Below, one piece after another: positions 1,360 through 62,993 of a stretch of 63,154 nucleotides of DNA. Position 1 is the stretch's first letter; the number at the start of each line of letters is the position of its first letter. Origin of the DNA: Candidatus Nomurabacteria bacterium (lineage in GTDB: Bacteria; Patescibacteriota; Minisyncoccia; Phycocordibacterales; UBA9973); NCBI GenBank assembly GCA_943354905.1, contig CALRDL010000003.1:1-63154 (forward strand), written 5' to 3'. The translations under genes were made by a program, and so were the position numbers. Under the pieces are notes generated by a model. It saw only the letters and a program-made list of their open reading frames with translations. It was not told where the DNA came from and did no database searches.

Positions 1360-1917
1360 CTATTTAATAAACATTGTACTAAGTCGAGGAATCCCATCAA
1401 TTATTATTACTCGGGCAGTAACTATATAATTTCCAATTTTAATCGGCACGTCAGATACAATACTTTCTGGAATTTTTGAAGTAATACTATTTAATCCTTT
1501 TATAACAGCCTGTATCACATTTTCTTTACTCCCTAACTCTTTTACTAGAAGATCTAATTTATGACTTGGGTTACCGAAAATATGTATCATTTTGGTTGGA
1601 TCCTTTGTTACATAGTTCACAGCTTTATTTAATGCATCTTGAGAAAATTTCAAAGTCTGCACCGTCGGACTCTTACCAAACTTAGTAAGTATATCACTCA
1701 TTTTATAGCTTGCCCAAGTGACAGGACCGGCAATCGTTGTTATTACCACAGCTACAAATCCCACAGGACATGCAAAGTAACAAGCGACCACGCCTCCAAT
1801 TATCACCACAGTTCCGGCGATATAGGGGTGTTTCTTTACTACATTTCCTACCACCTTCCCTATCCCTACTGCCACATCTGAATGCCATGGGTTCTCATAA
1901 ATGGTGGCTGACCCCAT
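1360..1917 (-). CDS. Free-standing polymorphic-toxin-like protein (cassette 1): TM hairpin homologous to the RHS C-terminus plus an unrelated tail
   Basis: ATG at 1915-1917 is preceded by AGGAGG (reverse complement of 1930-1935, 12-nt spacing). GIGKVVGNVVKKHPYIAGTVVIIGGVVACYFACPVGFVAVVITTIAGPVTWASYKMSDILTKFG is colinear with RHS aa 1398-1468. A different tail of about 105 aa follows (IHIFGNPSHKLDLLVKELG...). Confidence 0.65.
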   Translation of the reverse strand: MGSATIYENPWHSDVAVGIGKVVGNVVKKHPYIAGTVVIIGGVVACYFACPVGFVAVVITTIAGPVTWASYKMSDILTKFGKSPTVQTLKFSQDALNKAVNYVTKDPTKMIHIFGNPSHKLDLLVKELGSKENVIQAVIKGLNSITSKIPESIVSDVPIKIGNYIVTARVIIIDGIPRLSTMFIK

Positions 1918-8758: not shown

Positions 8759-8974
8759 AATAAATACTAAAAGAGAAAAAATGATTGCAAAATAAACATT
8801 TTGGGGACTTTTTAGCCCCAAGAGTTTGCTAAGCGGGAGTTCAATTGGAATTGATTGAACCATATATCCCAACCCTAACAAATCAGAAATTAAATGTCAA
8901 TAGTTTTTTTATTTTTTTATCAAGGGGCAACCCATATTCACCTCCCCTGACAAGGGGAGACTGGAGGGGTTGAA

Positions 8975-9910: not shown

Positions 9911-9932
9911 CCTCCCCCTACTTAGGGGGAGG
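9911..9932. repeat. GC-rich palindromic element, family A (cctcccccta-ct-tagggggagg)
   Basis: Perfect 10-bp arms. Near-identical copy at 37380-37401. Confidence 0.85.
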
Positions 9933-19162: not shown

Positions 19163-19800
19163 TAAAATTCTTCTTCTTTGCCTATTTCTAAATTTTTGAA
19201 ACTAATACCCAATTCTTTCAAGAAATTTTCTGGATTTTTCCAGATGAATGATGCCCAACTATGAATAAAACCATCGTGCACAGGAAAAACTATTCTTGGA
19301 TTAATATTTTTTGCATAATTAATCGCCTCCCCTATTTTCATCCACGGACCAGCCGTAGGAAGAGCGAGAATATCCACATCATGATCTGGGTAGTTAAAAG
19401 CATCTCCGGCATAGCACAAATTATCTATCATATAACCTGTATTCTGAACCTGTTTCATTGTGATATAAGTTTCTGCATGCAAATTACCAAAACCCACAAT
19501 CTGTACATCTTTAAAATCGTACTTCTGTCCCTCCTCTACTTTTGTATATTTAATATTTATTTCATCAAGTATTTTTCCAACAGCAGTATTTGTTATTATT
19601 GTGGCAGTAGGGTTATTTTCTAAAACTATCTTCAATGAGTCTATGTGCAAGTGATCAGGATGTTCATGAGTAATCAAAACTAGATCAATGTTCTTTTCTT
19701 CATTTTGTAGAGTTGAAAAAGAACCAGGATCAGTCATAACCCTCACCCCTATTTTAGGCTCCACCACAAAACAACAATGCCCAAGCTTTTTAATCTTCAT
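19162..19800 (-). CDS. MBL-fold metallo-hydrolase
   Basis: ITHEHPDHLH motif. ATGA overlap with the ileS stop. Confidence 0.8.
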   Translation of the reverse strand: MKIKKLGHCCFVVEPKIGVRVMTDPGSFSTLQNEEKNIDLVLITHEHPDHLHIDSLKIVLENNPTATIITNTAVGKILDEINIKYTKVEEGQKYDFKDVQIVGFGNLHAETYITMKQVQNTGYMIDNLCYAGDAFNYPDHDVDILALPTAGPWMKIGEAINYAKNINPRIVFPVHDGFIHSWASFIWKNPENFLKELGISFKNLEIGKEEEF

Positions 19801-22800
19801 ATTTTTATTTTAGCAATTTCTACTTTGAATACCAAATTGTCTACTTTAACTTCCTGCCCGCCATTACCTTTGAATTCTATTTTAGAAACTAGAACAGTTT
19901 TTTTCATATCTGCTTCAAATTTTTGAATCAATTCTTTGCCTTTTCCATCGGTTTCAAAAGAAATAGACACTATTTCACTCGGAGTCAATCCGAAATTCTT
20001 TCGCATATCTTGCAAAGCTCGCACAAGCTCGCGATAATTTCCTTCTTGTTTTAATTCAAAAGTTATTTCATCATCAAGCAAGACTTTTGATTCAAGATTT
20101 TTATTTTCTTTAACTTCTTTTACATTTAATTCGTCTTTAATTAGTTCTATGTATTCTATGCCTAGTGAAAAATCTTTTATTTCTAATTTGGAAAGTGGTT
20201 GACGAACGGCTATTTTAGCTTTTTGTCTAGCTTCGAGACCTAGAGAAACGACATCTCTCACAATCTGCATATTTTTCAATATTGCGTCTTCTTTGTGGCC
20301 AAAAATATCAAAAATACTTTTTGATATTTTTGGCCACTCTGCCAAGTGCACACTCTGTGTGTCACTTTCATTTTTTAATTTCAACCAAATATCCTCAGCA
20401 GTAAATGGAGCAAATGGAGCAAATAATTTTGCAAGAGTTTTCAAAACAAAATACAAAGTTTGTTTTGCCTCTACGTCTCCTTCTTTGATTCTTTCACGAG
20501 AACGACGCAGATACCAAGTCGAAAGATCTCCAATAAAATCTCGTACCGCACGAACTGGTTCGAGAAGTTTATAACTATCCAAATTTTCGGTAGAAATTTT
20601 TATAAGTTCATTTAGTCTAGCCACAATCCAAGCATCTAAAATGTTTTCTGACTTTTTATATTCCAACTTTTCTAATTCTTGATCTCGATATAATTCATAA
20701 AACGCCAAGACGTTATAAAGCAAGCTAAAAACTTGCTGTTGAAGAAGAGAGACAGTTTTCTCATCAAAGTTTTTTGATTCACCGGGTTGATTCACAGAAT
20801 ACATCCAGAGACGTAAAGTGTCGACACCATATTTATTCATCATCTCCCAAGGATCAACAATATTTCCTATGGATTTAGACATTTTCTTGCCTTGAGCATC
20901 AAGCAAATGCCCAAGACAAATCACATTTTTATACGCCTTTCCTCGACCAACAAGCACTCCAATCGCATGCAAAGTGTAGAACCAGCCACGAGTTTGGTCT
21001 ATAGCTTCTGAGATAAAATCCGCGGGAAAACCCGACCCATCTACCCATTTTTTATTTTCAAAAGGATAATGATCCTGAGCAAAAGGCATACAACCAGAAT
21101 CAAACCAGACATCCATCACTTCTTTTGTGCGGGTCATATCGCCACCACAACTACACTCTAAATTAATTTCATCAATAAATGGTTTGTGTAAATCTAATTC
21201 GTATTCAACATTATGTGGAAGGGGAATAAATTCATGTTCTCGGTGAAGTTCTCCTGTTTTATTTTTTATTTTCGAATGGAAAATTTCTAAAGAGCGAGCT
21301 TTATCAGCACCTTCAATCACGGCTGGAATTAATTCCAACGACAAACCATGCGAAACAATCAAAATAGTTTCATTTTTATATTTTTGATCGATATCATACA
21401 AAAATTCTCCAAAACGTCTCTTACCATCTTGAAAACTCTCCCCTCCTGGAATTTTAGTATCGAAAGTCCAAGTCTTACCCTCCATAAAATCCCAATAGTC
21501 TTGCACCGGACGTTCTCCGAATTCTCCAAATTCAAGTTCGTGTAGACGTTCATCAATAATGATATTTTCTTTTGGAAATCCTATTTTTTCTGCCACTATA
21601 TCTGCCGTTTCACGAGTTCGTAAAAATGGGGAACAGAAAATTTGAGTTATTTTTTCCTGCCTGCGCAGGCAGGTATTTTTCAAATGTTCCACAGTCTCGT
21701 GCACTTGCGATTTACCTTTTTCTGTCAAGTGATTTTTATTCCGATCGGAAGAATAAATATTTTTAGCATTATTTTCAGCTTCCCCATGACGCATCACGAA
21801 ATATTTATTTTTAGATTTCTTTGATTTATTTTTTAAATCTTCCAAACTTCCTACTACATGTCTCTTCTCGCACTTGCCGCAAATCCAAACAGGTAGTGGA
21901 GTTCCCCAATATCTCTCACGCGATATAGCCCAATCTTTTATTTCACGTAGCCATTCGCCAAAACGCCCATCTCGGATGTATGCTGGCTCCCAATTGATCG
22001 TCTTATTTTCTTCGATCATTTCTTTTTTTATTTTCGGATCCGACATACGGATATACCAAGAATCACGCGCATAGTATATGAGCGCAGTTTTGCAACGCCA
22101 ACAATGCGGGTAGCTATGTTTATAATTTTCTTGTTTAAAAAATAAATTTCGCTTTTTTAGATCTTCGATGATGTCTAGAGCTAGGGTTGGCTTACCCGGC
22201 CCACCAACAATACCGCCATCAACTTCTTTAACAAATCTACCTTCTAAAAATCCAGTGCCCGATAAAAATTTTCCATCAAGGCCGACGAGATGGTGTTTTG
22301 GTAAACCAACCTCTGTGCCTAACACAAAATCGTCCTGTCCATACATAACAGCTGTATGCACGATTCCCGTACCATCGGTAGTATTCACAAAATTTGCAGT
22401 ATAGACTTTATAAGCCTTATCCATTTTTGTTTTTTCACTTTCAGAAATAGTCTCTGCGAGATACGGAAAAAGTGGTTCGTATTCTAGCCCGACTAGATCT
22501 TTACCCTTAAATTCTGAAATTAATTCATAATTTTCTAGTAGAGATAATTTAGATTTTGCAAGAATATACACACCTCCAGACGATCTATAAATTCCATGGT
22601 CTTGTGGGGCATTTAAAACGACCACTATCTTTTCTCTTACTTTTACATAATCTATATCTTCCCCCACAGCCAAAGCAACATTCCCCGGCAATGTCCATGG
22701 TGTCGTCGTCCACGCAAGAATGTAAGTATTATCTTGTCCTTTTAATTTGAATTTAACATAAACCGATAAATCTTTCACATCTTCATATCCCTGAGCGAGT

Positions 22801-23384
22801 TCATGACTAGACAAAGCCGTCCCACATCTCGGACACCAAGGCACAACTTTATAATCTTTATACAAAAGTTTTTGTTCGTCGATTTTTTTTACCACACTCC
22901 AAAGAGATTCAATATAGTCGTTATGATAAGTAACATAAGCATTTTCTTGATCAGCCCAATATCCCATTCTTTGAGTAAAATCTTTCCATAAATCTATAAA
23001 TTCCCAAACACTGTCTTTGCAAAGTTTATTAAAAGCGGCTATGCCATAATTCTCGATATCATTTTTTGACTTAAAGCCAAGTTTTTTTTCTATTTGTAAT
23101 TCCACCGGAAGTCCGTGTGTATCCCAACCACCCTTCCTGTGTGCATGGAAGCCTTGCATAGTTTTGTATCTAGGTATTACATCTTTAAAAGAAAACGGCA
23201 CCATGGTGTGAAGAACCGGTTTAGAATTTGCTGTAACCGGTCCATCGTAAAAAACAAATTCCTTACCGCCCTCACGATTTTTAACTGATTTCTTAAAAAT
23301 TTTATTCTCACGCCAAAATTCCAAAACACGCTCTTCTCGAAGAGCTACCTCACTTTTGTTATTTTTTACATTTTCGTCTTGCAT
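19797..23384 (-). CDS. ileS: Isoleucyl-tRNA synthetase (type 2-like) with an inserted histidine-phosphatase domain
   Basis: KMSKS (GKKMSKSIGN), WCPRCGTAL, WAISRERYWGTPLP and DVWFDSG motifs. The likely start is MQDENVK at 23384. Aa 541-735 form a PGAM-like insert (MRHGEAENN...CSPFLRTRETA...IVSHG). Confidence 0.9.
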   Translation of the reverse strand: MQDENVKNNKSEVALREERVLEFWRENKIFKKSVKNREGGKEFVFYDGPVTANSKPVLHTMVPFSFKDVIPRYKTMQGFHAHRKGGWDTHGLPVELQIEKKLGFKSKNDIENYGIAAFNKLCKDSVWEFIDLWKDFTQRMGYWADQENAYVTYHNDYIESLWSVVKKIDEQKLLYKDYKVVPWCPRCGTALSSHELAQGYEDVKDLSVYVKFKLKGQDNTYILAWTTTPWTLPGNVALAVGEDIDYVKVREKIVVVLNAPQDHGIYRSSGGVYILAKSKLSLLENYELISEFKGKDLVGLEYEPLFPYLAETISESEKTKMDKAYKVYTANFVNTTDGTGIVHTAVMYGQDDFVLGTEVGLPKHHLVGLDGKFLSGTGFLEGRFVKEVDGGIVGGPGKPTLALDIIEDLKKRNLFFKQENYKHSYPHCWRCKTALIYYARDSWYIRMSDPKIKKEMIEENKTINWEPAYIRDGRFGEWLREIKDWAISRERYWGTPLPVWICGKCEKRHVVGSLEDLKNKSKKSKNKYFVMRHGEAENNAKNIYSSDRNKNHLTEKGKSQVHETVEHLKNTCLRRQEKITQIFCSPFLRTRETADIVAEKIGFPKENIIIDERLHELEFGEFGERPVQDYWDFMEGKTWTFDTKIPGGESFQDGKRRFGEFLYDIDQKYKNETILIVSHGLSLELIPAVIEGADKARSLEIFHSKIKNKTGELHREHEFIPLPHNVEYELDLHKPFIDEINLECSCGGDMTRTKEVMDVWFDSGCMPFAQDHYPFENKKWVDGSGFPADFISEAIDQTRGWFYTLHAIGVLVGRGKAYKNVICLGHLLDAQGKKMSKSIGNIVDPWEMMNKYGVDTLRLWMYSVNQPGESKNFDEKTVSLLQQQVFSLLYNVLAFYELYRDQELEKLEYKKSENILDAWIVARLNELIKISTENLDSYKLLEPVRAVRDFIGDLSTWYLRRSRERIKEGDVEAKQTLYFVLKTLAKLFAPFAPFTAEDIWLKLKNESDTQSVHLAEWPKISKSIFDIFGHKEDAILKNMQIVRDVVSLGLEARQKAKIAVRQPLSKLEIKDFSLGIEYIELIKDELNVKEVKENKNLESKVLLDDEITFELKQEGNYRELVRALQDMRKNFGLTPSEIVSISFETDGKGKELIQKFEADMKKTVLVSKIEFKGNGGQEVKVDNLVFKVEIAKIKI
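21656..21677. repeat. GC-rich palindromic element, family B (cctgcctgcgcaggcagg+tatt) inside ileS
   Basis: Perfect 18-nt palindrome. The identical 22-mer recurs at 34393-34414. Confidence 0.9.
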
Positions 23385-23406
23385 GTTTTTATAAATTTTT
23401 ATAAAT

Positions 23407-23590
23407 AAAAAAAACCCGTCCACATACAACAATAATAAAATTGTTATACAAGGACGAGTTTTTGACCCGTGGTACCACCTTTGTTACTTCTCATTTAATG
23501 GGTTCTACTTTCGACTAGGTCTTGCCTAGCGATTTCTTCCCGAAGCATGCCCACCATATTGGAGGACTCAGGAGTGATAACTCCTTCAAC
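23407..23590 (-). promoter_or_regulatory. T-box leader (tRNA-sensing riboswitch) of ileS with an intrinsic terminator
   Basis: The minus strand reads AACAAAGGUGGUACCACGG (reverse complement of 23467-23482), close to the T-box consensus. A long terminator hairpin with U8 follows (23407-23458). An upstream hairpin AGGAGU-UAUC-ACUCCU (23570-23585) contains an Ile AUC codon. Confidence 0.6.
23512..23531. repeat. Family C hairpin (stem-agg tcttg cct-stem) inside the T-box leader
   Basis: cgactagg-tcttg-cctagcg. Confidence 0.6.
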
Positions 23591-23930: not shown

Positions 23931-25325
23931 CTATTTTTTCTTTCCGGACACCTTTCCTCCAAAAGATGTTACAAAATCATCATGCATTTTTTTGAGTTCG
24001 GTTGTGGAAAGTTTACCGAACACGACCTGCGCCTCTTCTGAATTTTTTTTAAAATAAATATCTTTTTCTAAAATTTCGGGATGAACTTTGAATGCATGGT
24101 CATTAATACCGAGTAGATAAAGTCCAGAAAGTCTCCGTACCCGAGAAAGAGCTACATATCCCTGACCAAATTCAAAGACTTGTGAGAGATCCATCACGGC
24201 AGCATCTAGACTCATACCCTGACTCTTGTGGACGGTCATAGCCCAAGCCAAGCGAAGAGGAATCTGGGTGATCTGGGCTCGACTCTTTCCATTTTCTTCC
24301 ACACTCCAATCCATAGGTGCCACAGTAATGCTGTAACCATTTTTGGTTTTAATTACTGGGTGACCACTAAATTCATCAAACTCAGTCACAACACCAAGTG
24401 TACCATTCACAAATCTTTCTTTTTGATTATTTTTAGTACACATAACCACTGCTCCAATTTTTAATTCTAAATTTTCTGGTGACAGACATCCTTTTTTTAA
24501 AGTCTCAATCATTTTTTCATTACCATCTCCCGACATTTGAAAACATTTCACTTCATCTTCGAGTTTAGCAAGCTCGGTATTGTTCACTCGATCTACATCC
24601 AAATTATGCGAATATAGTTTGGTAATATTTTCCGGCATATCGCCCCAATCTATTTGTCTTTCTTTTATATGTTTAAAATGTTTTTCAGAAATATTATTAC
24701 TCCGAATAGCCGAAAGAACTGAGAGAAGATCCTTGTCATCTTGGCGATGCTGTTCAGACAAATAACACACCACAAACCTAGCCCTGTCCCAAGCTCCGCT
24801 ATTGTATGCAAAATTCCCCACAAGTCCGACTTGTGGGATAAGTGAATTTTGTTTTTCACTATATTCCTTCTCTCTAAAATCTTTTTTAACAATCGGTGGT
24901 AATTGAAAAAAATCTCCAACAAGAACAACTTGCATCCCGCCAAAGGCTTCGCTTTTTTGTTTTATTTCTCGACAAACTAGATCAACCATATCCAGCATGC
25001 CATGAGAAAGCATAGAAACTTCATCAATAATTAAAACTTTTGTGCGATTAACTCTCTTTACAATATATTCACTGCTAGCAATTTTATCTAGATCGTATTT
25101 ATCTAATTTATTTTTTATTCCAATACCACTCCACGAATGGATAGTCATACCCCCGATATGGGTAGCAGCAATACCAGTCGAAGCTGTTACAGCTAAATCT
25201 ATATCACGATCACGCAAATAATTCACCAAATTATTTATCGTGTGAGTTTTCCCAGCACCGGGTTCACCAGTCAAGAAAACATTCGCACCAGTTTTTAAAA
25301 TGTTCAAAGCTTGCTCTTGAGTCAT
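23931..25325 (-). CDS. PIF1/RecD-like superfamily 1 DNA helicase
   Basis: Walker A FLTGEPGAGKTH, LIIDEVSM and VHKSQG motifs. Confidence 0.8.
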   Translation of the reverse strand: MTQEQALNILKTGANVFLTGEPGAGKTHTINNLVNYLRDRDIDLAVTASTGIAATHIGGMTIHSWSGIGIKNKLDKYDLDKIASSEYIVKRVNRTKVLIIDEVSMLSHGMLDMVDLVCREIKQKSEAFGGMQVVLVGDFFQLPPIVKKDFREKEYSEKQNSLIPQVGLVGNFAYNSGAWDRARFVVCYLSEQHRQDDKDLLSVLSAIRSNNISEKHFKHIKERQIDWGDMPENITKLYSHNLDVDRVNNTELAKLEDEVKCFQMSGDGNEKMIETLKKGCLSPENLELKIGAVVMCTKNNQKERFVNGTLGVVTEFDEFSGHPVIKTKNGYSITVAPMDWSVEENGKSRAQITQIPLRLAWAMTVHKSQGMSLDAAVMDLSQVFEFGQGYVALSRVRRLSGLYLLGINDHAFKVHPEILEKDIYFKKNSEEAQVVFGKLSTTELKKMHDDFVTSFGGKVSGKKK

Positions 25326-33461: not shown

Positions 33462-34349
33462 TTATTTCTGAAAAATAAAACTTTCTTTTTTGCCATCAGA
33501 TTTCATAATAATCGTCCCCAACAGATCTGTGCGTAAAACTTTTACACCAAATTTAGCTAAAGTGTTTAGAGTTTCTCTGTGCGGATGACCGTATTTGTTG
33601 TCCTTGCCATTTGAAACGATGGCATAAGTAGGTGCCACGGCCTTAACAAAAGAATCCGAGGTAGAAGTTCGCGATCCATGATGCCCGACTTTTAAAATAG
33701 TGCTTTTTATTCCTGCAAGGTCTTGCCTAGCAGTTTTTTTATGATTATCTAAAATTATTTTCTCTGTTTTACTAGTCGAATCACCAGTGAGCATTATAGA
33801 AGTCTGTCCGTATGACAATTTAGCCACAATCGATCCATCATTTGTATCCCACGTAGAAACGTCTTGATCCGGAAACAAAATATCTATCACCGCTCCACCA
33901 CCGATATCTATTCTCATTCCCTTTTTTACTAAAATGTTTTGAATTTTTTTATTTTTTATTTCTGCCTCTAGATTTTTAGATACTTTCGAATCATTTATTG
34001 TACCCGGCTCAAAAACCATATCCACATTATAAGTTTTTAAAATATCATTAAACCCTCCAATATGGTCAGCGTCTGGATTAGTGATGACGATCGCATCTAT
34101 ATGCCTATCAAACGGAGACATGACTCGTGCAAGTCCACTCAAAATTTTTCTTGGTGGGCCAACATCGAACAATATTTGTGTACCAGTCGGAGACTCTATG
34201 AATAATGCGTCGCCCTGTCCGACATCTAGTATTGCGAAAATTAGATCTTTTTTTGAACTTTTAAAATCTAGGTAAAAAAGATAGGTTGTACTTACTAAAA
34301 GTAAGCAAGTAAAAATGAATAGGCCATAACTTTGTTTCCTTGGAATCAT
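33462..34349 (-). CDS. ComEC-type MBL-fold domain protein (stand-alone, TM-anchored)
   Basis: ILDVGQGDALFIESPTGTQILFDVG and VGHHGS motifs, as in the ComEC C-terminal beta-lactamase domain. Confidence 0.75.
   Translation of the reverse strand: MIPRKQSYGLFIFTCLLLVSTTYLFYLDFKSSKKDLIFAILDVGQGDALFIESPTGTQILFDVGPPRKILSGLARVMSPFDRHIDAIVITNPDADHIGGFNDILKTYNVDMVFEPGTINDSKVSKNLEAEIKNKKIQNILVKKGMRIDIGGGAVIDILFPDQDVSTWDTNDGSIVAKLSYGQTSIMLTGDSTSKTEKIILDNHKKTARQDLAGIKSTILKVGHHGSRTSTSDSFVKAVAPTYAIVSNGKDNKYGHPHRETLNTLAKFGVKVLRTDLLGTIIMKSDGKKESFIFQK
33713..33733. repeat. Family C hairpin inside the comEC-MBL gene
   Basis: ctgcaagg-tcttg-cctagcag (one mismatch). Encodes ARQDLAG. Confidence 0.6.
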
Positions 34350-34363
34350 GCTATAATAGTACC

Positions 34364-34975
34364 ATGAAAAAATTTGAAGAATTAAAATTTAACCTGCCTG
34401 CGCAGGCAGGTATTGTCAGTCTAAAAGGTATCTCGGCAAAAAACATAGAGGAACACCTCAAGCTTTATGCAGGGTATGTCACTCATAGCAATCTTGTGTT
34501 AGAAAAAATAGAAGAATTGTCTACTGATCCAGAAAAAAATATGCCCATTTTGAGCGGACTACAAAAAAGATTTGGGTTCGAATATAATGGTATGCGAAAT
34601 CATGAAGTTTATTTCTCCTCTCTTTCTGGAGAACCAAAGAATCTTTCTATTGAAAGCGAACTTAAAAAAAACATTTCGGAAGAATGGATTTCATTTGAAA
34701 AATGGTTAACATTATTTAAGACTATTGCGACGACTCGTGGTGTAGGCTGGGCAATGCTCTACTACGACAGAAAAGAAAAAAGACTACTCAATGCTTGGGT
34801 AGATGAGCAACATTTAGGTCAACTTCAAGATTGTACACTCATTTTAGCCTTAGATATGTGGGAACATGCGTATGTTTATGATTACTCTACTTCTGAAAAG
34901 AAAAAATATATAGAAGCATTTTTCGAAAATCTAAATTGGGAAATAGTTGAAGAGAATTTCAAGAAGGCTATCTAG
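34364..34975 (+). CDS. Fe/Mn superoxide dismutase family protein
   Basis: DMWEHAYVYDY signature and NHEVYF. The start is taken at MKKFEELKF, with TATAAT at 34352-34357. Confidence 0.7.
   Translation: MKKFEELKFNLPAQAGIVSLKGISAKNIEEHLKLYAGYVTHSNLVLEKIEELSTDPEKNMPILSGLQKRFGFEYNGMRNHEVYFSSLSGEPKNLSIESELKKNISEEWISFEKWLTLFKTIATTRGVGWAMLYYDRKEKRLLNAWVDEQHLGQLQDCTLILALDMWEHAYVYDYSTSEKKKYIEAFFENLNWEIVEENFKKAI
34393..34414. repeat. Family B palindromic element inside the SOD-like gene
   Basis: The 22-mer cctgcctgcgcaggcaggtatt is identical to 21656-21677. Encodes LPAQAGI. Confidence 0.9.
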
Positions 34976-36435
34976 GAATTTTGAATACTTCTCCAAAAAA
35001 GTATATAAAAAAAATATACATAAATTAGTATTACAAAAATAAGCGGAAAGTCTGGAAAAACAATAGAAGCAAAAGAAAGCTTGGAGAAGAAATCTATAAC
35101 TCCAAGTTCATAATGCAAAAATAAATACGAGATAAATCCCAGTGGCACAGAAAATCCATACCAAAATAGCCCAGCAAATCCAGTCAAAAATCCGAGAAGC
35201 ATTGTGAAAGGTATAAATGGCAAAATTAAAAAATTTGCGGGCAAAGCAACTAAAGAAAGATTCCCCATCTTATAAAGTATAAACGGAGTTACAAATACAT
35301 AAGCCGAGAAAGTAACCGAAGCTATCTCGCGAAGAGCAAAATTTTTAGGAACCCATAAGAAATATTTTTCAATTCTTGGAGTTAAAAATATCACCGCAAT
35401 AGTCGCTAGAAATGAAAGTTGGAAAGAAACATCAAAGACTAAGACGAAAGGATTTATTAAAATCATAAAAACCCCAGCGAGGACAAGAGCTCGTGCGACA
35501 TCATAATTTCGCCCTGTCGCGCGAGCGAAGAGTGTAAGAGTGGCCATGATTCCAGCACGTATCGCAGTCGAACCAAAACCAGTCATTAAAATAAAAAGCC
35601 AAACTAGAAAAATTCCAGCCCCAATACTAGCACTCAAAGAGAAAATTTTAGAGAAACTTAAAAATTTCATAAACCATTCAGCTACTATGGTAACGTTATA
35701 ACCCGAGAGAGCGACGATATGGATAGTCCCAGTATTTATAAAATTATTTCGAAGCTCAGAACTAAAAGCAGCCTTCTCTCCTAGGATGAGTCCACCCATG
35801 AGTAAATTTTCTGGATTCGCAATATTCAAATCAATATTTCGCAAAAATTTCTTTTTAAAAGAAAATAAAATACTTTTTACAAAATTCCCATTATCACGAG
35901 AAACAATTTCTGCAGTTACGTAATTCATGACGTAATATATTCCATCTTTGCGCAAATAGTTTATATAATCAAATTCTTTCCCTTGATCAGTTATGAAATT
36001 TTCTGGCTTTTGCAGAATACCCTTAAAATTTATTTCGTCACCGTATTTAAATTCTTCACCAAAAGGAACAGTGACTAAAATTTTCGTGGTGGAAGGAGCC
36101 ACCAACACTGTTAATTTCTGATTATTCTCCGTGATATCTGGCTGGTCCACAATCTCTCCAGATAAAGTTACTTTCCCTCCCACTTGTGATTCGAAAAATT
36201 CCGGATTTGGTTTATCAACCATATCAAATCTCAAAATACCAAGCGAAAAAAATAAAATAAGACATGAGATGATTAATCCCATTCCAAAATTCTTTACTAT
36301 ACAGAAAAACAAAATAACCAATAGAGCTACAACTCCAAACCAGATAACTAAATATAAATTTACAAAAACAAAAGACCGCAACAACACTCCAAAAATAAAT
36401 CCAAAACAAGATGAGTAAAATATTTTATCTTGCAT
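34972..36435 (-). CDS. comEC: ComEC/Rec2 competence channel (DUF4131 + Competence domains, without MBL)
   Basis: 487 aa and polytopic, with an OB-like segment (KVTLSGEIVDQP...LTVL) followed by multiple TM helices. Confidence 0.75.
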   Translation of the reverse strand: MQDKIFYSSCFGFIFGVLLRSFVFVNLYLVIWFGVVALLVILFFCIVKNFGMGLIISCLILFFSLGILRFDMVDKPNPEFFESQVGGKVTLSGEIVDQPDITENNQKLTVLVAPSTTKILVTVPFGEEFKYGDEINFKGILQKPENFITDQGKEFDYINYLRKDGIYYVMNYVTAEIVSRDNGNFVKSILFSFKKKFLRNIDLNIANPENLLMGGLILGEKAAFSSELRNNFINTGTIHIVALSGYNVTIVAEWFMKFLSFSKIFSLSASIGAGIFLVWLFILMTGFGSTAIRAGIMATLTLFARATGRNYDVARALVLAGVFMILINPFVLVFDVSFQLSFLATIAVIFLTPRIEKYFLWVPKNFALREIASVTFSAYVFVTPFILYKMGNLSLVALPANFLILPFIPFTMLLGFLTGFAGLFWYGFSVPLGFISYLFLHYELGVIDFFSKLSFASIVFPDFPLIFVILIYVYFFYILFWRSIQNS

Positions 36436-36997: not shown

Positions 36998-38707
36998 TTA
37001 ATAAATATCCTCTATCCTCAATCTTAACTCTTCTTTCCCCCGAAACCTAGACAAGTCGAAAGTGGCTAGTAAATTTACGTTAATCCCTTCTTCTAGAACT
37101 TTACTAAAAGAATCCAGCCCAGAAAAAAAGGAAATCGCCACGACTTTTGTATTTGTATTTTCATCTCCCTCTTGATTTTTATTGGAAAAAATAATTTCCA
37201 AATGTTCGCCTGAACCATTCTTGCCGAACTTTTTTAATTTTTCTATTTTTACATTTTCAAAAAGAAATATCGGCTTGGGATTAGCAAGACCAAATGGTGT
37301 CATCTTTTCTATTTCTCGCCAATTTTTCATATTCACAGCGTTCAGAGTAAATTTTATATCAAAATTTACTCCCATCGTTCCTCCCCCTACATAGGGGGAG
37401 GTGCCGAAGGCGGAGGGGGTAAGTTTCTTAAATGAAAGTGATAAAGCCTCTTCCAAGAAATGCACTTTCTCAGTATGCACAGTGAAACCTCCGGCCAGCT
37501 CGTGCCCACCAAAATCCAAAAAGAATTCTTTCGTTTCTGTCATGAGTTCGACTATAGAGACAGATCCAGGCGAACGACAAGAACCCTTGATGCAATCATT
37601 TTCATCTTTTCCCCAAACAAAAACAGGCTTGTTGTATTCATCCATGATTTTTCCAGCTACAAGTCCGAGCACCCCAACTCTCCAATTCGGATTCCCGACG
37701 ACGATCACTTCATTCATTTCTCTCAAAGGACTATTGCTGAAAGTTTTTCCTACATCACGCATTATCCCCTTCACGATGTTTTTTCTTTCATCGTTTATTT
37801 TTGATAAATGGATAGCCAAATTATCACCCTCGACTTCATCAATGGTGGAAAGAAGTTCGAATGCTCGCATAGGGTCGTCCATTCGAGAAGCAGCGTTTAT
37901 GCGGGGTGTTAACATGAATCCAACATCATCTTCAGATAAATATTTTTGATCAATATTCATTTTAGCTAAAAGTTTTTGTAACCCCGGACGTGGAGATTTG
38001 CGTAAAACTTTCATCCCAAAATAGGCAATGGCTCTATTTTCCCCCGTAAGGGGGACCATATCTGAAAGAGTGGCCAATCCAGCCATATCGAGACTCCATT
38101 TTTCCCAACCATTAGTAATCTTAAAAAATTCACCATATTTTTTTACAAAACCTTGCACGAATTTGAACATGACTCCCGAACCACAAAGCATCTTCTCGGG
38201 ATAATCATCAACTTTAGGATTCAAAATAGCAAAAGCTCTCGGCAATGTCTCATGTGGTAAGTGATGATCTGTGATTATCACGTCTATGCCAGCAATTGAG
38301 GCTTCCGCTACTTCTTCTACTGCTGTGATACCCAGATCTATCGTAATAATAAGCTGGACTCCACTTTTTATAAATTTCCCAATTGCAATTAAGTTTAATC
38401 CATAACCTTCAGAGTTTCTTTGTGGGATATAAACTTCATAGTTTTTATAATTTATTTTTTTTAGTAAATCACTCAAGATCACTGCCCCTGGAATCCCGTC
38501 ACAATCATAGTCTGCATAAATAATTATCTTTTCATTATTGTCGATCGCTTGATAAAGTCGTACACAAGCACGTTCCATATCACGCATCAAAAAAGGATCG
38601 TGAAGATCCCGATCATAGTCTGGATTTAAAAAAGCGTTTATTTCTTGATCATTTTTAAGCCCGCATTTTAAAAGTAATTCTTTCAATAATTCTCCACTTT
38701 GGTGCAT
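36998..38707 (-). CDS. recJ: Single-stranded-DNA-specific exonuclease RecJ
   Basis: DHH motifs (IYADYDCDG, ITDHH), DHHA1 and GGHELAGG. The start is taken at MHQSGELL. Confidence 0.85.
   Translation of the reverse strand: MHQSGELLKELLLKCGLKNDQEINAFLNPDYDRDLHDPFLMRDMERACVRLYQAIDNNEKIIIYADYDCDGIPGAVILSDLLKKINYKNYEVYIPQRNSEGYGLNLIAIGKFIKSGVQLIITIDLGITAVEEVAEASIAGIDVIITDHHLPHETLPRAFAILNPKVDDYPEKMLCGSGVMFKFVQGFVKKYGEFFKITNGWEKWSLDMAGLATLSDMVPLTGENRAIAYFGMKVLRKSPRPGLQKLLAKMNIDQKYLSEDDVGFMLTPRINAASRMDDPMRAFELLSTIDEVEGDNLAIHLSKINDERKNIVKGIMRDVGKTFSNSPLREMNEVIVVGNPNWRVGVLGLVAGKIMDEYNKPVFVWGKDENDCIKGSCRSPGSVSIVELMTETKEFFLDFGGHELAGGFTVHTEKVHFLEEALSLSFKKLTPSAFGTSPYVGGGTMGVNFDIKFTLNAVNMKNWREIEKMTPFGLANPKPIFLFENVKIEKLKKFGKNGSGEHLEIIFSNKNQEGDENTNTKVVAISFFSGLDSFSKVLEEGINVNLLATFDLSRFRGKEELRLRIEDIY
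37380..37401. repeat. Family A palindrome inside recJ
   Basis: cctcccccta-ca-tagggggagg, followed by gccgaaggcgg/ggagggggt. Encodes SAFGTSPYVGGG. Confidence 0.85.
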
Positions 38708-55186: not shown

Positions 55187-56347
55187 ATGAAAATAACTAT
55201 AAAAAAATTACCGAAAAGCATCATAGAGATCGAAGGAGAAATCGATGTTGATATTTTCGAAACTTATTTCAACACAGCTTTAAAGAAAATCGGAGAAAAT
55301 GTAAAATTAGATGGATTCAGGAAAGGCAAAATTCCAGAAAATGTACTTCTTTCTAATGTTCCAGAAATAACCATATTAGAAGAGATGGCTCAAATGGCTT
55401 TGAATGATCATTATCCGAAAATTATTGCAGGAGAAATGGGCAATGAGAAAATTGATGCTATCAGTCGACCAGAAATTTCAATCACAAAGTTGGCTCGCAA
55501 AAACCCACTCGGATTCAAAATCCAAACTGCAGTCTTACCCGAGATCACTCTCCCCGACTATAAAAATATTGCCAAAATTATAATTTCAAAAATCACCGAC
55601 GCAGAAAAAAATACAGATGTTACTGAGGAAGATTTAGAAAATACTATTCTCGATATCAGGAAATCTCGAGCTCCAAAAGTAAAGATGGCGGACGCAACCC
55701 CTCCCAACCTGTCTGAGCAGGCAGACATCCCATTATCAGGAGAGGAAAATGGACTTCCCCCTGACAAGGAGGAAAATAAGGAGGCTGAGCCAGAACCCGC
55801 CCGAACGACTGAAGACGTTCAGTCGGGCGGGTTGCCCATTTTTGACGATGCTTTTGTTCAGGCTCTTGGGCCCTTTACAGATATCGCCGACTTTAAAACC
55901 AAACTCCGAGAAAATATAAAGATAGAAAAAGAAAATCTAGCCAAAGAAAAGACTCGTTTACAGATTATTGAAAAAATAATCGAAGACAGTACACTTGAAG
56001 TTCCAGAAATTCTGATTGAAATAGAATTAAATAAAATATTACAGAGAATGGAGTCTGATATCACTCAGATGGGGCTCAAGTTTGACGATTACTTGAAACA
56101 TTTGAATAAAACTATTGATGATTTAAAGAAAGATTTTCGAACTGATGGCGAGAAAAAAGCAAAATTAGCTCTAATTTTAAACGAGATAGCTAAAGTCGAA
56201 AAAATTCTCGCCGATGAAGAACAAGTTGCTAAAGAAGTCGCCCATATACTCGAACACTACAAAGATGCCGACCCCGAGCGCGCGCGGATGCATGCAGAGA
56301 ACGTCCTCACGAACGAAAAGATTTTTCAATTCTTAGAAAATCTTTAA
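55187..56347 (+). CDS. tig: Trigger factor lacking the FKBP/PPIase domain
   Basis: The N-terminal ribosome-binding motif GFRKGKIP and the C-terminal arm domains are present. The middle section is a GC-rich repeat-derived segment instead of a PPIase domain. Confidence 0.8.
   Translation: MKITIKKLPKSIIEIEGEIDVDIFETYFNTALKKIGENVKLDGFRKGKIPENVLLSNVPEITILEEMAQMALNDHYPKIIAGEMGNEKIDAISRPEISITKLARKNPLGFKIQTAVLPEITLPDYKNIAKIIISKITDAEKNTDVTEEDLENTILDIRKSRAPKVKMADATPPNLSEQADIPLSGEENGLPPDKEENKEAEPEPARTTEDVQSGGLPIFDDAFVQALGPFTDIADFKTKLRENIKIEKENLAKEKTRLQIIEKIIEDSTLEVPEILIEIELNKILQRMESDITQMGLKFDDYLKHLNKTIDDLKKDFRTDGEKKAKLALILNEIAKVEKILADEEQVAKEVAHILEHYKDADPERARMHAENVLTNEKIFQFLENL
55793..55832. repeat. 40-nt GC-rich hairpin inside tig
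   Basis: aacccgcccga pairs with tcgggcgggtt (11-bp outer stem), with an inner ctgaa/ttcag stem. Confidence 0.85.
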
Positions 56348-62297: not shown

Positions 62298-62316
62298 ATC
62301 AAGGTGAAACCTTGAT
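62298..62316. repeat. Hairpin repeat atcaaggt-gaa-accttgat (copy 3), 6 nt upstream of the RAYT-like gene
   Basis: 8-bp arms. Confidence 0.8.
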
Positions 62317-62321
62317 ATGCT

Positions 62322-62993
62322 GTGGATATGCAAAGAAAAGTGAAATTTGAAACAGGAGAGATATATCACGTCTACAATCGTGGCGTTGAAAAAAGAATCC
62401 TCTTCCAAAACCATTATGAATACAGGAGATTTATGGCTTTGCTATATGTTTCGAACAGCACCAAGCAAATACATCTGAGTAACACAGCTCACAACGACAA
62501 CATCGAAAAAATATTTGAAAAAGAAAGAGGTGAGCCAATAGTCGCCATAGGAGCCTATTGCCTAATGCCAAACCATTTCCACCTTCTGCTCACTCCACTC
62601 GTCGAAGGCGGAATATCAAAGTTTATGCAAAAAGTCCAGACTGGGTATTCTATGTACTTCAATAAAAAACATTCTAGAGTTGGTTCTCTATTCCAAGGTA
62701 CATTCAAATCAAAACATATAAATAAAAATGAGTATTTGATGTATGTCTATTCCTATATTCACCTGAATCCTGCAAAATTAAAGAATAAAGAGTGGAAAAT
62801 ACAACCAAATTCTTTTATAAGTGATTTAAAAGATTTTATCAACGAATACCCCTACTCTAGTTTGCAAGAATATCTATTAAAAAAATATACACTCATTAAT
62901 TCAAAACCTTTTCCTATAACTCGAGATCAGATTTGTGACTATACTTCAATGCTAGATGACTATAATGAAGCTTTTTTACCTAAAAATAAATAA
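62322..62993 (+). mobile_element. REP-associated tyrosine transposase (RAYT)/IS200-like Y1 HUH transposase
   Basis: YHVYNRGVEKRILF, HUH motif CLMPNHFHLLL, and catalytic Tyr region YSYIHLNPAK. Confidence 0.8.

Follow-up and report, generated by a model that had tools for sequence, protein, structure and literature searches.

An 18-bp palindrome inserted in frame into unrelated genes of an ultra-small CPR bacterium, and its relation to cassettes encoding GIY-YIG nucleases

The window analysed here, a stretch of 63,154 nucleotides from Candidatus Nomurabacteria bacterium, contains the same 22-mer, CCTGCCTGCGCAGGCAGGTATT, in two unrelated protein genes, at 21656-21677 in the isoleucyl-tRNA synthetase gene (ileS) and at 34393-34414 near the 5' end of a superoxide-dismutase-like gene (SOD). 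How can one GC-rich sequence come to be translated as part of two unrelated proteins? The initial annotation regarded it, together with a relative in the trigger factor gene (tig), as a miniature element, either mobile or a repeat, for which insertion in frame into coding sequence is tolerated or even selected. Copies throughout the genome and empty sites in orthologues, described below, support this view.

The repeated unit and its copies

The identity of the two 22-mers is exact, and 100 dinucleotide shuffles contained no match. The palindrome recognised within them is real, but the unit that is repeated measures 18 nt and not 22: it is the perfect, GC-rich palindrome CCTGCCTGCGCAGGCAGG, here called PAL, composed of two 9-nt inverted halves, CCTGCCTGC and GCAGGCAGG. 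Because the flanks of 15 exact genomic copies are mutually unrelated, the 3' TATT shared by the ileS and SOD copies is AT-rich flank lying outside PAL. A longer element hidden in the flanks was considered as well, and is ruled out by the same 15 copies. A composite with another hairpin is common to three copies only, those in tig, at C15:2931 and at C1:44599.

The genome (G000; 750,840 bp, 35.7% GC) is that of a Paceibacterota-like, ultra-small CPR bacterium. A genome-wide census, which the annotation had proposed, revealed further copies, 15 of them exact, 21 with at most one mismatch and 28 with at most two, most of them located in housekeeping genes. Chance expectation for the 18-mer is about 3e-7 (our own arithmetic from base composition) and the reversed pattern had no match in the same genome, in agreement with the earlier opinion that coincidence can be dismissed. 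PAL occurs at a density of 1 per 27-50 kb. It is stop-free in all frames and its length equals six codons, and it is therefore tolerated inside essential genes. As DNA it forms a hairpin of -7.4 to -8.5 kcal/mol. Copies nested within another PAL and copies within tRNA-fragment DNA were both found. Individual copies have decayed through point mutations that are not compensated; examples are those in tig, at a topA-like site of the same genome (LPVQIG) and in the SOD gene of a relative (G021). Other GC-rich hairpin families are likewise present inside long ORFs of this genome, one of them in the window (Table 1); insertion relative to orthologues was tested for PAL only.

Table 1. Palindrome copies, their host genes and other features of the window
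Feature	Position	Strand	Description
PAL copy 1	21656..21673	.	exact 18-nt palindrome; six-codon insertion in ileS
ileS, isoleucyl-tRNA synthetase	19797..23432	-	tRNA-synt_1, His_Phos_1 (residues 529-698), Anticodon_1
PAL copy 2	34393..34410	.	exact 18-nt palindrome; six-codon insertion, 5' end of SOD-like gene
Fe/Mn superoxide-dismutase-like protein gene	34361..34975	+	Sod_Fe_N profile match; PAL N-terminal of the matched part
Decayed PAL, CCTGTCTGAGCAGGCAGA	55708..55725	.	3 mismatches; trigger factor linker
tig, trigger factor without PPIase domain	55187..56347	+	Trigger_N (1-154), Trigger_C (233-365)
Other-family hairpin	24817-24837		in helicase-like ORF
Y1_Tnp / REP-associated-tyrosine-transposase-like ORF	62316-62990		one of nine in the genome

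Insertion sites, reading frame and distribution

In ileS, PAL is read on the minus strand as (T)CLRRQ(E), in the context ..KN-TCLRRQE-KI.., and its empty site can be reconstructed as aaa aat a^aa aaa. It falls within an internal histidine-phosphatase domain (His_Phos_1), an insert of the synthetase conserved throughout the genus, and its six residues are missing in 29 of 29 genus orthologues. In the SOD gene it is read as (N)LPAQAG, in the context ..FN-LPAQAG-IV.., and interrupts an AAT codon (aa[PAL]t att). Both frames agree with those first proposed, TCLRRQE and LPAQAGI. The SOD site is empty in 27 of 30 sequences, which read 'aaa ttt aat att' (at codon level, the empty site lies between aat and att). 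The filled alleles, in G000, G021 and G002, belong to three separately supported clades and carry different members of the family, namely the 18-mer, a decayed 18-mer and a 21-mer, CCTGCCTaccggaCAGGCAGG; one site has thus been hit repeatedly.

The tig sequence, proposed as a relative from the beginning, is a true decayed copy of PAL: its homology to the copies at C15:2931 and C1:44599 extends over about 46-57 nt, and it forms a six-residue insertion (TPPNL[SEQADI]PLSGE) where orthologues have TPPNL-PLSGE. It adjoins an older GC-rich hairpin-derived segment, which encodes TPPNL..PLSGE, and is placed in the linker between Trigger_N and Trigger_C. Its hairpin is weakened to -3.9 kcal/mol, versus -7.4/-8.5 kcal/mol for PAL.

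The SOD copy recurs unchanged in Logan contigs from four lake-water metagenome runs of two studies (2020-2022), and a contig of run X3 covers the ileS copy with 0 differences. Besides filled PAL sites, Logan contigs also contain an empty SOD allele, which belongs to a different species; in these assembled contigs no polymorphism within a population was seen.

Orthologue alignments, another of the proposed checks, thus lack the six residues at all three loci of the window in most or all relatives, and orthologues carrying the same residues without the palindrome were not found. The relation holds in the reverse direction too, as palindromes of relatives coincide with exact 6-aa gaps in proteins of G000 (L003, L005, L006, L015). 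Filled and empty sites differ by exactly 18 nt, with no target-site duplication. Of 54 copies, 43 have R immediately before PAL and 39 have Y immediately after it; the opposite arrangement, Y before and R after, accounts for 3% of copies. The R^Y preference is retained outside long ORFs, and it is the only one that the flanks show, a conserved 5' tetranucleotide being absent. What enters the DNA is an exact 18-bp unit; no target duplication arises, and R^Y is the preferred site. Once inserted, it persists mostly in the LPAQAG frame, within loops and linkers: among intragenic copies in ORFs of at least 150 aa, frames are used in the ratio 72:18:9 in favour of LPAQAG, and the other two frames hold 27 of 99 copies, including that in ileS.

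PAL is present in 19 of 61 genomes of the order. Within the genus it occurs in 14 genomes, 22 of 36 congeners have 0 copies, and its positions are not conserved. Its distribution over the phylum is patchy: in a sample, 9 of 400 other genomes (about 2%) carry it, a few of them with 15, 7, 6 or 4 copies, which gives a picture of bursts. The same 18-mer was found in more than 119 stretches of other GTDB genomes, mostly CPR, and its sequence is the same in many CPR classes and in some other phyla; orthologous sharing of PAL between species was seen as well. Twenty-five viral contigs also contain the 18-mer, and as most of them are GC-rich (0.5-0.67) and use the frames almost evenly, they are uninformative on PAL. 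A literature search on the 18-mer, on LPAQAG, on RAYT in combination with CPR, and on the in-frame insertion of palindromes in Patescibacteria gave no match.

Cassettes and free-standing genes of GIY-YIG nucleases

The 9-nt halves of PAL are also the termini of larger elements, cassettes of 282-300 bp that encode solely a UPF0213-type GIY-YIG nuclease. In metagenomes, 128 split pairs of the form CCTGCCTGC-N258-288-GCAGGCAGG were detected, 17 of which enclose a GIY-YIG ORF. All 17 cassettes have a length divisible by 3 (282 bp in ten of them), and all 17 are read through in frame within host ORFs of 225-1263 aa. The nuclease ORF has neither start nor stop of its own and forms part of the host protein (..D-LPAPRP..nuclease..GRARQAG-G..). 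It matches PF01541 (GIY-YIG) with 53-57 bits, has no other domain in its 94-100 codons and is nearest to the UPF0213 structures 1zg2 and 1ywl; an NCBIfam search gave no informative name.

Cassettes and PAL have their flanks (GA before, Y after) and their preferred frame in common. Such an arrangement could have arisen when a GIY-YIG gene landed inside PAL, which is made less likely by the terminal inverted repeats (TIRs) of the cassettes, since these reach inward past the 9-mers (CCTGCCTGCGCCGCG and CGCGGCAGGCAGG). Elements of intermediate size (39, 36, 21 and 20 nt) exist, and in one locus (L090) a cassette, a 39-nt form consisting of TIRs only and a solo PAL are found within a single hsdR gene. 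The site PD^AWI of HsdM holds a cassette in three contigs. When read in the CLRRQ frame, that of the ileS copy, 16 of the 17 cassettes contain stops, and PAL must therefore move as a short unit.

Cassettes and abundant PAL were not found in the same genome. No PAL-ended cassette is present in G000 (halves with at most one mismatch, gaps up to 2 kb), and no contig of this genome terminates in a PAL half; the PAL-rich genomes G103, G128 and G297 have no such cassette either. The pairs that a search for split halves yielded in 401 genomes of the phylum all belong to a sibling 20-mer palindrome, CCTGCCTGCCGGCAGGCAGG, and none is a cassette. GIY-YIG matches in larger open frames of congeners (L209-L218) are in no case bounded by PAL halves, and some are accompanied by other GC-rich repeats.

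Free-standing GIY-YIG genes present a further connection. In six genomes (L017, L047, L058, L130, L374, L384) an intact PAL lies shortly upstream of such a gene, at a distance of about 20-130 bp, where fewer than one adjacency would be expected by chance (rough estimate). In one genome (G128), which is 100% complete, there are six PAL copies and no Y1 transposase, and the only small GIY-YIG gene has a PAL 20 bp upstream of it. Small GIY-YIG genes occur in all 14 PAL-bearing genomes of the genus, and the five genomes without such a gene are all without PAL. Around 124 PAL copies, examined in 8-kb windows, the enrichment of GIY-YIG genes relative to their density in G000 is only about 2-fold. 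Copy number of PAL across the genus is uncorrelated with the number of small GIY-YIG genes (G030 has seven genes and 0 PAL), and the three small GIY-YIG genes of G000 have neither PAL halves nor GC-rich inverted repeats around them.

Origin of the palindrome and its relation to known elements

We consider it somewhat probable that PAL is the minimal nonautonomous member of an undescribed family of GIY-YIG-associated, hairpin-ended elements, the enzyme and the chemistry being inferred. PAL itself would be a selfish non-coding mini-element with nothing but two 9-nt inverted termini, related to the cassettes as a MITE may be to its full-length element. Recognition of the GC-rich hairpin or cruciform at the termini would fall to a GIY-YIG nuclease, encoded either in a cassette or by a free-standing gene, and the same nuclease would mobilise PAL in trans. 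The palindrome would move as a hairpin or single strand and be pasted into nicked or structured DNA, the targets being the loops and bases of hairpins, the D-loop DNA of tRNA genes or another PAL. It would spread horizontally between lineages and multiply in occasional bursts, such as that presumed in G000. To our knowledge, GIY-YIG enzymes act as nucleases and not as strand-transferases, so an integration step performed by them lacks precedent.

A broader proposal, which we advance only tentatively, is that PAL and its relatives make up an unrecognised class of prokaryotic mobile elements, hairpin-ended and duplication-free, with an autonomous cassette of about 282 bp, with the 18-bp PAL as the smallest mobile DNA known, with seamless cut-and-paste driven by a nuclease and with spread across phyla. 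Inside a host protein, the UPF0213/Slx1-like GIY-YIG nuclease of the autonomous cassette would be expressed as an internal domain. This nuclease would read the terminal hairpin by both structure and sequence. By seamless cutting and pasting it would transfer the hairpin to DNA that is structured or single-stranded, and would do so at the same sites again and again. Movement across phyla might proceed via uptake of foreign DNA or via phage.

The most serious competitor, which we nevertheless hold to be unlikely, makes PAL a REP-like hairpin that one of the RAYT-like HUH (Y1) tyrosine transposases moves in trans, acting on single-stranded DNA at the replication fork, the GIY-YIG link being secondary, as both would target hairpins. 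G000 does encode nine Y1_Tnp / REP-associated-tyrosine-transposase-like ORFs, one of them in the window. Cognate GC-rich hairpins flank two of these genes (C7:10959 and C12:1246) and interrupt them in frame, and two others (C6:16659 and C19:2027) have internal cognate copies, which is the classical REP-RAYT arrangement; hairpin families of this kind enter long ORFs too, as in the helicase-like ORF of Table 1. Insertion without target-site duplication is typical of HUH/Y1 elements (IS200/IS605, RAYT), and PAL inserts in this way. A RAYT-like gene moreover adjoins the PAL-laden hsdR gene of L090, and in L051 and L049 the distance between such a gene and PAL is 150-184 bp. In G000, however, PAL neither flanks nor interrupts any RAYT-like gene, and no PAL lies within 500 bp of the nine. 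RAYT-like genes are near PAL at 4 of 119 loci, below the density of G000 itself. PAL also occurs without Y1 genes, in G128 (six copies, no Y1_Tnp match), G013, G029 and G032, while G003, G008 and G014 have 8-11 RAYT-like genes and no PAL. Copy number of PAL does not correlate with Y1 genes in the genus, and the conserved 5' tetranucleotide that a RAYT would lead one to expect is missing.

PAL might instead be immobile, an in-situ scar left by interior deletion of a full in-frame cassette. It does correspond to the outermost 9+9 (or 11+7) nt of a cassette, and its junction has GC microhomology; the common preferred frame (LPA..QAG) and flanks agree with such an origin, as do the 36- and 39-nt intermediates. 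We judge it improbable nonetheless, because 27 of 99 intragenic copies are in other frames and, at ileS, a cassette would have put stops in an essential gene. Among about 30 relatives none has a cassette at the SOD site or at the ileS site, 15 identical copies exist in a genome devoid of cassettes, and nesting in PAL and in tRNA-fragment DNA is equally at odds with a scar. Still less credible is a selected host sequence, kept or created where useful, such as a binding site of a dimeric protein (resembling parS, operators, matS or uptake sequences) or a regulatory RNA hairpin. A perfect 18-bp palindrome, identical in very distant lineages and forming a hairpin as stable as that given above, would suit such a role; PAL copies, however, are insertions rather than recruited codons, most congeners lack them, their positions are not conserved and they decay by point mutation without compensation. 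The density of uptake sequences is far above 1 per 27-50 kb, and PAL is thus much too sparse for one. Sites of the parS, matS or operator type are positionally conserved and present in all close relatives, whereas those of PAL are lineage-specific insertions. An assembly, adapter or chimera artefact we regard as practically out of the question: palindromes can break assemblies and contigs of run X3 do end beside the ileS copy, yet the same insertions appear in contigs of four runs from two studies, PAL is found in MAGs of many laboratories, and an artefact would show neither frame bias, nor decayed versions, nor orthologous sharing between species.

Among the known repeats that PAL resembles are the Rickettsia palindromic elements (RPEs), reportedly described by Ogata et al. 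in 2000 as selfish palindromic repeats lying in frame in unrelated, often essential genes. They are said to add a peptide at surface regions of proteins, to vary in presence between close relatives, to be about 100-150 bp long and imperfect, and to be confined to Rickettsia; we know of no transposase identified for them. PAL shares with RPEs its in-frame position in unrelated protein genes and its absence from orthologues. It differs in being 18 bp long and perfect, in consisting of termini only with unrelated flanks, in its CPR and other hosts, and in having termini in common with a nuclease-encoding cassette. With REP/REPIN-RAYT systems it has in common short, GC-rich dispersed hairpins and a proposed single-strand chemistry without target-site duplication. 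REPs, however, are imperfect, have a conserved 5' tetranucleotide, and are extragenic and clustered round the RAYT, whereas PAL is perfect, mostly intragenic, never beside a RAYT-like gene in G000, and present in a complete Y1-free genome (G128). IS200/IS605 (Y1 HUH) elements also lack duplications, but insert 3' of a fixed tetra- or pentanucleotide and possess subterminal hairpins and tnpA; PAL exhibits R^Y only and has no adjacent Y1 gene.

Like MITEs, PAL keeps only the TIRs of a larger coding element, in a size series of 282-300, 39, 36, 21, 20 and 18 bp. MITEs measure 50-500 bp, duplicate their target site and rely on transposases of the DDE or another known type, in contrast to PAL, which makes no duplication and whose larger partner encodes a GIY-YIG nuclease and no known transposase class. 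The cassettes are similar to GIY-YIG homing endonucleases and inteins as selfish nuclease genes with a GIY-YIG domain inside conserved host genes, and in filling the same site in homologous genes of unrelated organisms (HsdM PD^AWI). Unlike these, they have no intron or Hint/splicing domain, are not free-standing between genes, are bounded by inverted repeats and possess cargo-less derivatives at many unrelated sites, which goes beyond homing alone; the GIY-YIG domain belongs to the cassette, PAL itself encoding nothing. Mitochondrial GC clusters (yeast var1) and the double-hairpin elements of Allomyces are GC-rich palindromes spreading in AT-rich genomes, and they too can be placed in frame in coding sequence. 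They differ from PAL in being organellar, 30-60 bp or longer and genome-specific in sequence, with no same-ended nuclease cassette.

If our interpretation is true, an 18-bp non-coding sequence acts as a transposable element and repeatedly alters essential proteins by six residues, which would push the lower size limit of mobile DNA further down and would place GIY-YIG/UPF0213 proteins among the enzymes behind transposition-like spread in bacteria. For CPR genomics, PAL is a source of false 'indel' characters in marker genes (aminoacyl-tRNA synthetases, FtsA, GyrA, ATP synthase gamma subunit) and of broken assemblies, as well as a flag of horizontal contact among unculturable lineages. An activity that inserts 18 bp sequence-specifically, seamlessly and without duplication would also have potential as a tool for in-frame tagging.

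PAL insertions and their flanks

A genome-wide census extended the two palindromes of the initial annotation to 15 exact copies of PAL, the 18-nt perfect palindrome CCTGCCTGCGCAGGCAGG, in the genome under study (G000; 750,840 bp, 35.7% GC, 31 contigs, the window being C3). It counted 21 copies when one mismatch was allowed and 28 when two were, at a chance expectation of ~3e-7 from base composition, and a reversed-sequence control gave no match in G000. The identical 22-mer reported in ileS (21656-21677) and in the Fe/Mn-SOD-like gene (34393-34414) was confirmed exactly, with no match in 100 dinucleotide-preserving shuffles, as were its reading frames, KN-TCLRRQE-KI in ileS and FN-LPAQAG-IV near the start of the SOD-like gene. 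Since the flanks of the G000 copies are unrelated to one another, the repeated element is the 18-mer itself; the palindrome thus stands as the unit, but not the proposed 22-mer, the TATT common to both window copies being flank.

PAL contains no stop codon in any frame, and the majority of G000 copies lie inside long ORFs. Ten host genes were confirmed by Pfam (ScpA, FtsA, a Mur ligase, GatA-type amidase, D-Ala-D-Ala ligase, ATP synthase gamma, DHFR, tRNA-guanine transglycosylase, MurB and Dus); CysRS, GyrA, GAPDH, HolB-like and RseP-like proteins are putative further hosts by reading of the sequences. The ileS copy lies in a complete histidine-phosphatase domain (His_Phos_1, RHGE motif, residues ~529-698), which is inserted in the catalytic body of the synthetase; of 41 genomes of the genus that were searched, most have this domain at full length. 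Of the two ORFs flanking the SOD-like gene, one resembles the metallo-beta-lactamase portion of ComEC and the other the membrane competence portion, so that ComEC appears split around the oppositely oriented SOD-like gene.

Orthologue alignments demonstrate presence or absence of a six-residue insert in ileS, SOD and tig (trigger factor). In ileS the six residues are absent from 29/29 orthologues of the genus (..LK------KKKITQ.., against ..LKNTCLRRQEKITQ.. in G000), and without the 18 nt the site reads aaa aat aaa aaa. The empty SOD site, 'aaa ttt aat att gg.', is found in 27 of 30 sequences of the genus, G000's own included; in G000 it reads aa[PAL]t att, PAL interrupting the AAT codon after the second base, and no base is duplicated or lost. 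The relative of the palindrome in tig proved to be a diverged PAL copy: orthologues read TPPNL-PLSGE and G000 TPPNL-SEQADI-PLSGE, so this copy likewise adds six residues. The nearest proteins to this trigger factor come under the names Paceibacterota, Nomurabacteria or Patescibacteria in their sources, and one tig orthologue (P0011) has PAL (DLPAQTG) at another place in the protein. Conversely, palindromes of congeners (L003, L005, L006, L015) align with exact six-residue gaps in G000, that of L005 at another ileS site than the window copy; at a topA-like site (CPDCGLPAQAGEKK in a congener) the G000 counterpart is a decayed copy, LPVQIG. In four lake-water metagenome runs, which come from two studies and three years, Logan contigs show the SOD copy unchanged, and a contig of one run has the ileS copy.

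The base preceding PAL is a purine in 78% of cases (symmetrised; 153 exact copies). Junctions are R|Y in 60%, R|R or Y|Y in 37% and Y|R in just 3% (124 copies, GTDB genomes). Because the bias persists outside long ORFs (-1 = R in 43/54, +1 = Y in 39/54), it stems from the element or its mechanism and not from codons. Within ORFs of 150 aa or more, the frames LPAQAG, PACAGR and CLRRQ are used 72:18:9 (chi-square ~70 against equal use, our own calculation), and the residue ahead of L is mostly G or D.

The same sites are occupied repeatedly. The identical SOD position is filled in three alleles (G000, G021 and G002). A maximum-likelihood tree built from the part of the protein that follows the site places them in three separately supported clades, G000 grouping with the empty G026, G007 and G008 at 97-99% support. 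The alleles differ: an intact 18-mer, a decayed 18-mer CCTTCCTGCGCAAACAGG and a 21-mer CCTGCCTaccggaCAGGCAGG, in which the PAL stems are kept and the centre is different. It is difficult to explain them by one ancestral insertion with many precise losses thereafter. Another recurrent target, in five genomes, is the D-loop position of a tRNA-Gln or tRNA-Leu 5' fragment. Three G000 copies, tig among them, share one position beside another hairpin element, and at C13:15196 (contig:position) one PAL is nested at the exact centre of another. This recurrence suggests a preference for DNA able to form hairpins.

Features of the window and of other sequences
Feature	Position	Strand	Remark
PAL copy in ileS	21656-21673		
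PAL copy in SOD-like gene	34393-34410		read on the plus strand
Decayed PAL copy in tig	55708-55725		
ileS ORF	19797-23432	-	
ORFs flanking SOD-like gene	33462-34349; 34972-36435	-	ComEC-like by resemblance
RAYT-like / IS200-like Y1 transposase ORF	62316-62990	+	one of nine in G000; Pfam Y1_Tnp 37.9 bits; 47.8 bits vs NCBIfam REP-associated tyrosine transposase, under that model's cut-off
Hairpin CCCACAAGTCCGACTTGTGGG	24817-24837		in frame (PQVGLVG) in helicase-like ORF 23931..25325; member of family flanking RAYT-like gene C7:10959
GC-rich hairpins CCTCCCCCTACnTAGGGGGAGG and relatives	9911-9932; 37380-37401; 8942-8959		~13 copies in G000, several in long ORFs, reading ..TSPY.GGG.. or ..LPL.RGR..
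Near-copy CCTGCCTACCGGCAGGCAGG of sibling 20-mer	G000 C1:10988-11007		only one in G000
Small GIY-YIG genes	L017 1485-1925; L047 1700-2110; L374 about 1390-1790		stretches of other genomes

GIY-YIG genes, cassettes and RAYT-like transposases

PAL corresponds to the outer 9+9 nt of a cassette, an in-frame GIY-YIG nuclease ORF with PAL halves as termini. In a WOR-3 MAG, CCTGCCTGC and GCAGGCAGG, separated by 273 nt, enclose a GIY-YIG domain in frame in a 1170-aa HsdR-like ORF, which also contains a 39-nt hairpin of terminal inverted repeats only and a solo PAL. A metagenome scan for two PAL halves 258-288 nt apart gave 128 half-pairs, 17 of them enclosing a GIY-YIG ORF. All 17 total lengths are divisible by three (282 ten times, 285 twice, 294, 297 three times, 300), and half-pairs without GIY-YIG are spread evenly over all lengths. 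In each of the 17 the reading frame runs on into the host ORF (225-1263 aa) at both ends, and the other two sense frames carry stops, with one exception among 34 frames checked. The left end is CCTGCCTGCGCCGCG (..D-LPAPRP..) and the right end CGCGGCAGGCAGG (..GRARQAG-G..), with flanks GA|..|Y, as for PAL. Profile matches are to GIY-YIG only, and the nearest solved structures are the UPF0213 proteins 1zg2 and 1ywl. The HsdM site PD^AWI is cassette-filled in three contigs of different GC content, and the site GRYVG..EDD^G in three further contigs. Folded on itself, the right terminus gives a sibling 20-nt palindrome, CCTGCCTGCCGGCAGGCAGG; this 20-mer has a CCGG centre, not GCGC, and is dispersed in other genomes of the phylum (L200-L208).

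It is conceivable that the cassette arose by insertion of a nuclease gene into a PAL. We found no PAL-ended cassette in G000, where the 36-mers at C11:8509 and C22:2293 start with a cassette-like left end, and the relatives compared have none at their ileS and SOD sites. The ileS copy is in the CLRRQ frame, in which a cassette would truncate the essential synthetase. That frame, the empty relatives and the lack of a cassette in G000 mean that PAL has to be capable of entry as a short, MITE-like unit and is more than a scar of decayed cassettes.

Intact PAL also lies ~20-130 bp from a free-standing small GIY-YIG gene in six genomes (G015, of the same genus as G000, L047, L058, L130, G128 and G103); by chance fewer than one such adjacency is estimated among ~175 PAL copies, at one such gene per ~100-250 kb. 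In five of the six, the sequence around PAL is a duplicated tRNA 5' fragment or tRNA copy, and an intact tRNA-Gln or tRNA-Leu is close by. In most, the PAL-bearing fragment comes first, then the GIY-YIG gene and last the tRNA; L058 has its PAL-bearing second tRNA copy downstream of both gene and tRNA. The 100%-complete G128 has six PAL copies and a sole small GIY-YIG gene with PAL 20 bp upstream. Each of the 14 genomes of the genus that carry PAL has a small GIY-YIG gene, and all five genomes without such a gene lack PAL.

Small GIY-YIG genes in L017, L047, L374, L058 and L130 adjoin tRNA-Gln/tRNA-Leu, beside a duplicated 5' tRNA fragment (a second tRNA copy in L058) with PAL in the D-loop; the arrangement looks like the outcome of nuclease-gene integration into a tRNA gene that was restored in the process. 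In L215 (G030:C2) and L217 (G061:C21) other small GIY-YIG genes of the genus are bracketed by GC-rich repeats or palindromes of their own, e.g. CCCCGTCGTTCGCGAACGACGGGG on both sides, which hints at several nuclease-plus-hairpin families.

Mobilisation of PAL by RAYT-like (Y1) transposases, the main rival reading, would draw on nine Y1_Tnp, or REP-associated-tyrosine-transposase-like, ORFs in G000. Several bear hairpin families of their own (CCACAAGTCGGACTTGTGG, CCACATGTCTGACATGTGG, CCCCGAAGAAAGTCTTCGGGG, AGATAGGGGCTAAGCCCCTATCT): cognate hairpins flank and interrupt in frame the genes at C7:10959 and C12:1246, and those at C6:16659 and C19:2027 have internal copies only. As these families also occur inside other long ORFs, hairpins inside long ORFs are a general feature of G000. 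However, no RAYT-like gene adjoins PAL in G000, none are enriched near PAL in other genomes, RAYT-rich genomes lack PAL, and G128 encodes no Y1 transposase, which makes such mobilisation unlikely. Some G000 hairpin families do look REP/RAYT-like; the orthologue comparison covered PAL alone. No GIY-YIG enzyme is known to join DNA. Because such joining is unprecedented, PAL-rich genomes are without the cassette and PAL copy number does not correlate with GIY-YIG gene count, a GIY-YIG mechanism for PAL is what we infer from anatomy and association.

Distribution and relation to known systems

A full-text literature search gave no hits for the 18-mer, the LPAQAG peptide, RAYT in CPR or palindromic in-frame insertions in Patescibacteria. 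The closest described systems are Rickettsia palindromic elements, REP/RAYT, MITEs, GIY-YIG homing endonuclease genes and mitochondrial GC clusters, from each of which PAL differs in at least one defining feature.

Within the order, with at most one mismatch counted, PAL occurs in 19 of 61 genomes at 1-4 copies, against 21 in G000. Exact PAL was present in nine genomes besides G000 (15, 7, 6, 4, 3, 2, 1, 1 and 1 copies) in an even sample of 400 from the phylum, and in at least 119 stretches in a scan of one genome per GTDB species. Among the matches listed, most are CPR (WWE3, Microgenomates, Woese-, Gottesman-, Kaiser-, Nomura-, Saccharibacteria and others), with some Bacteroidota, Gammaproteobacteria and Terriglobia MAGs. 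The early suspicion of a mobile or repeat element is borne out by the further copies and the orthologues without insert, and identity of this non-coding 18-mer across such distant lineages, with its patchiness and bursts, is the pattern that a horizontally moving element, rather than an inherited site, would leave.
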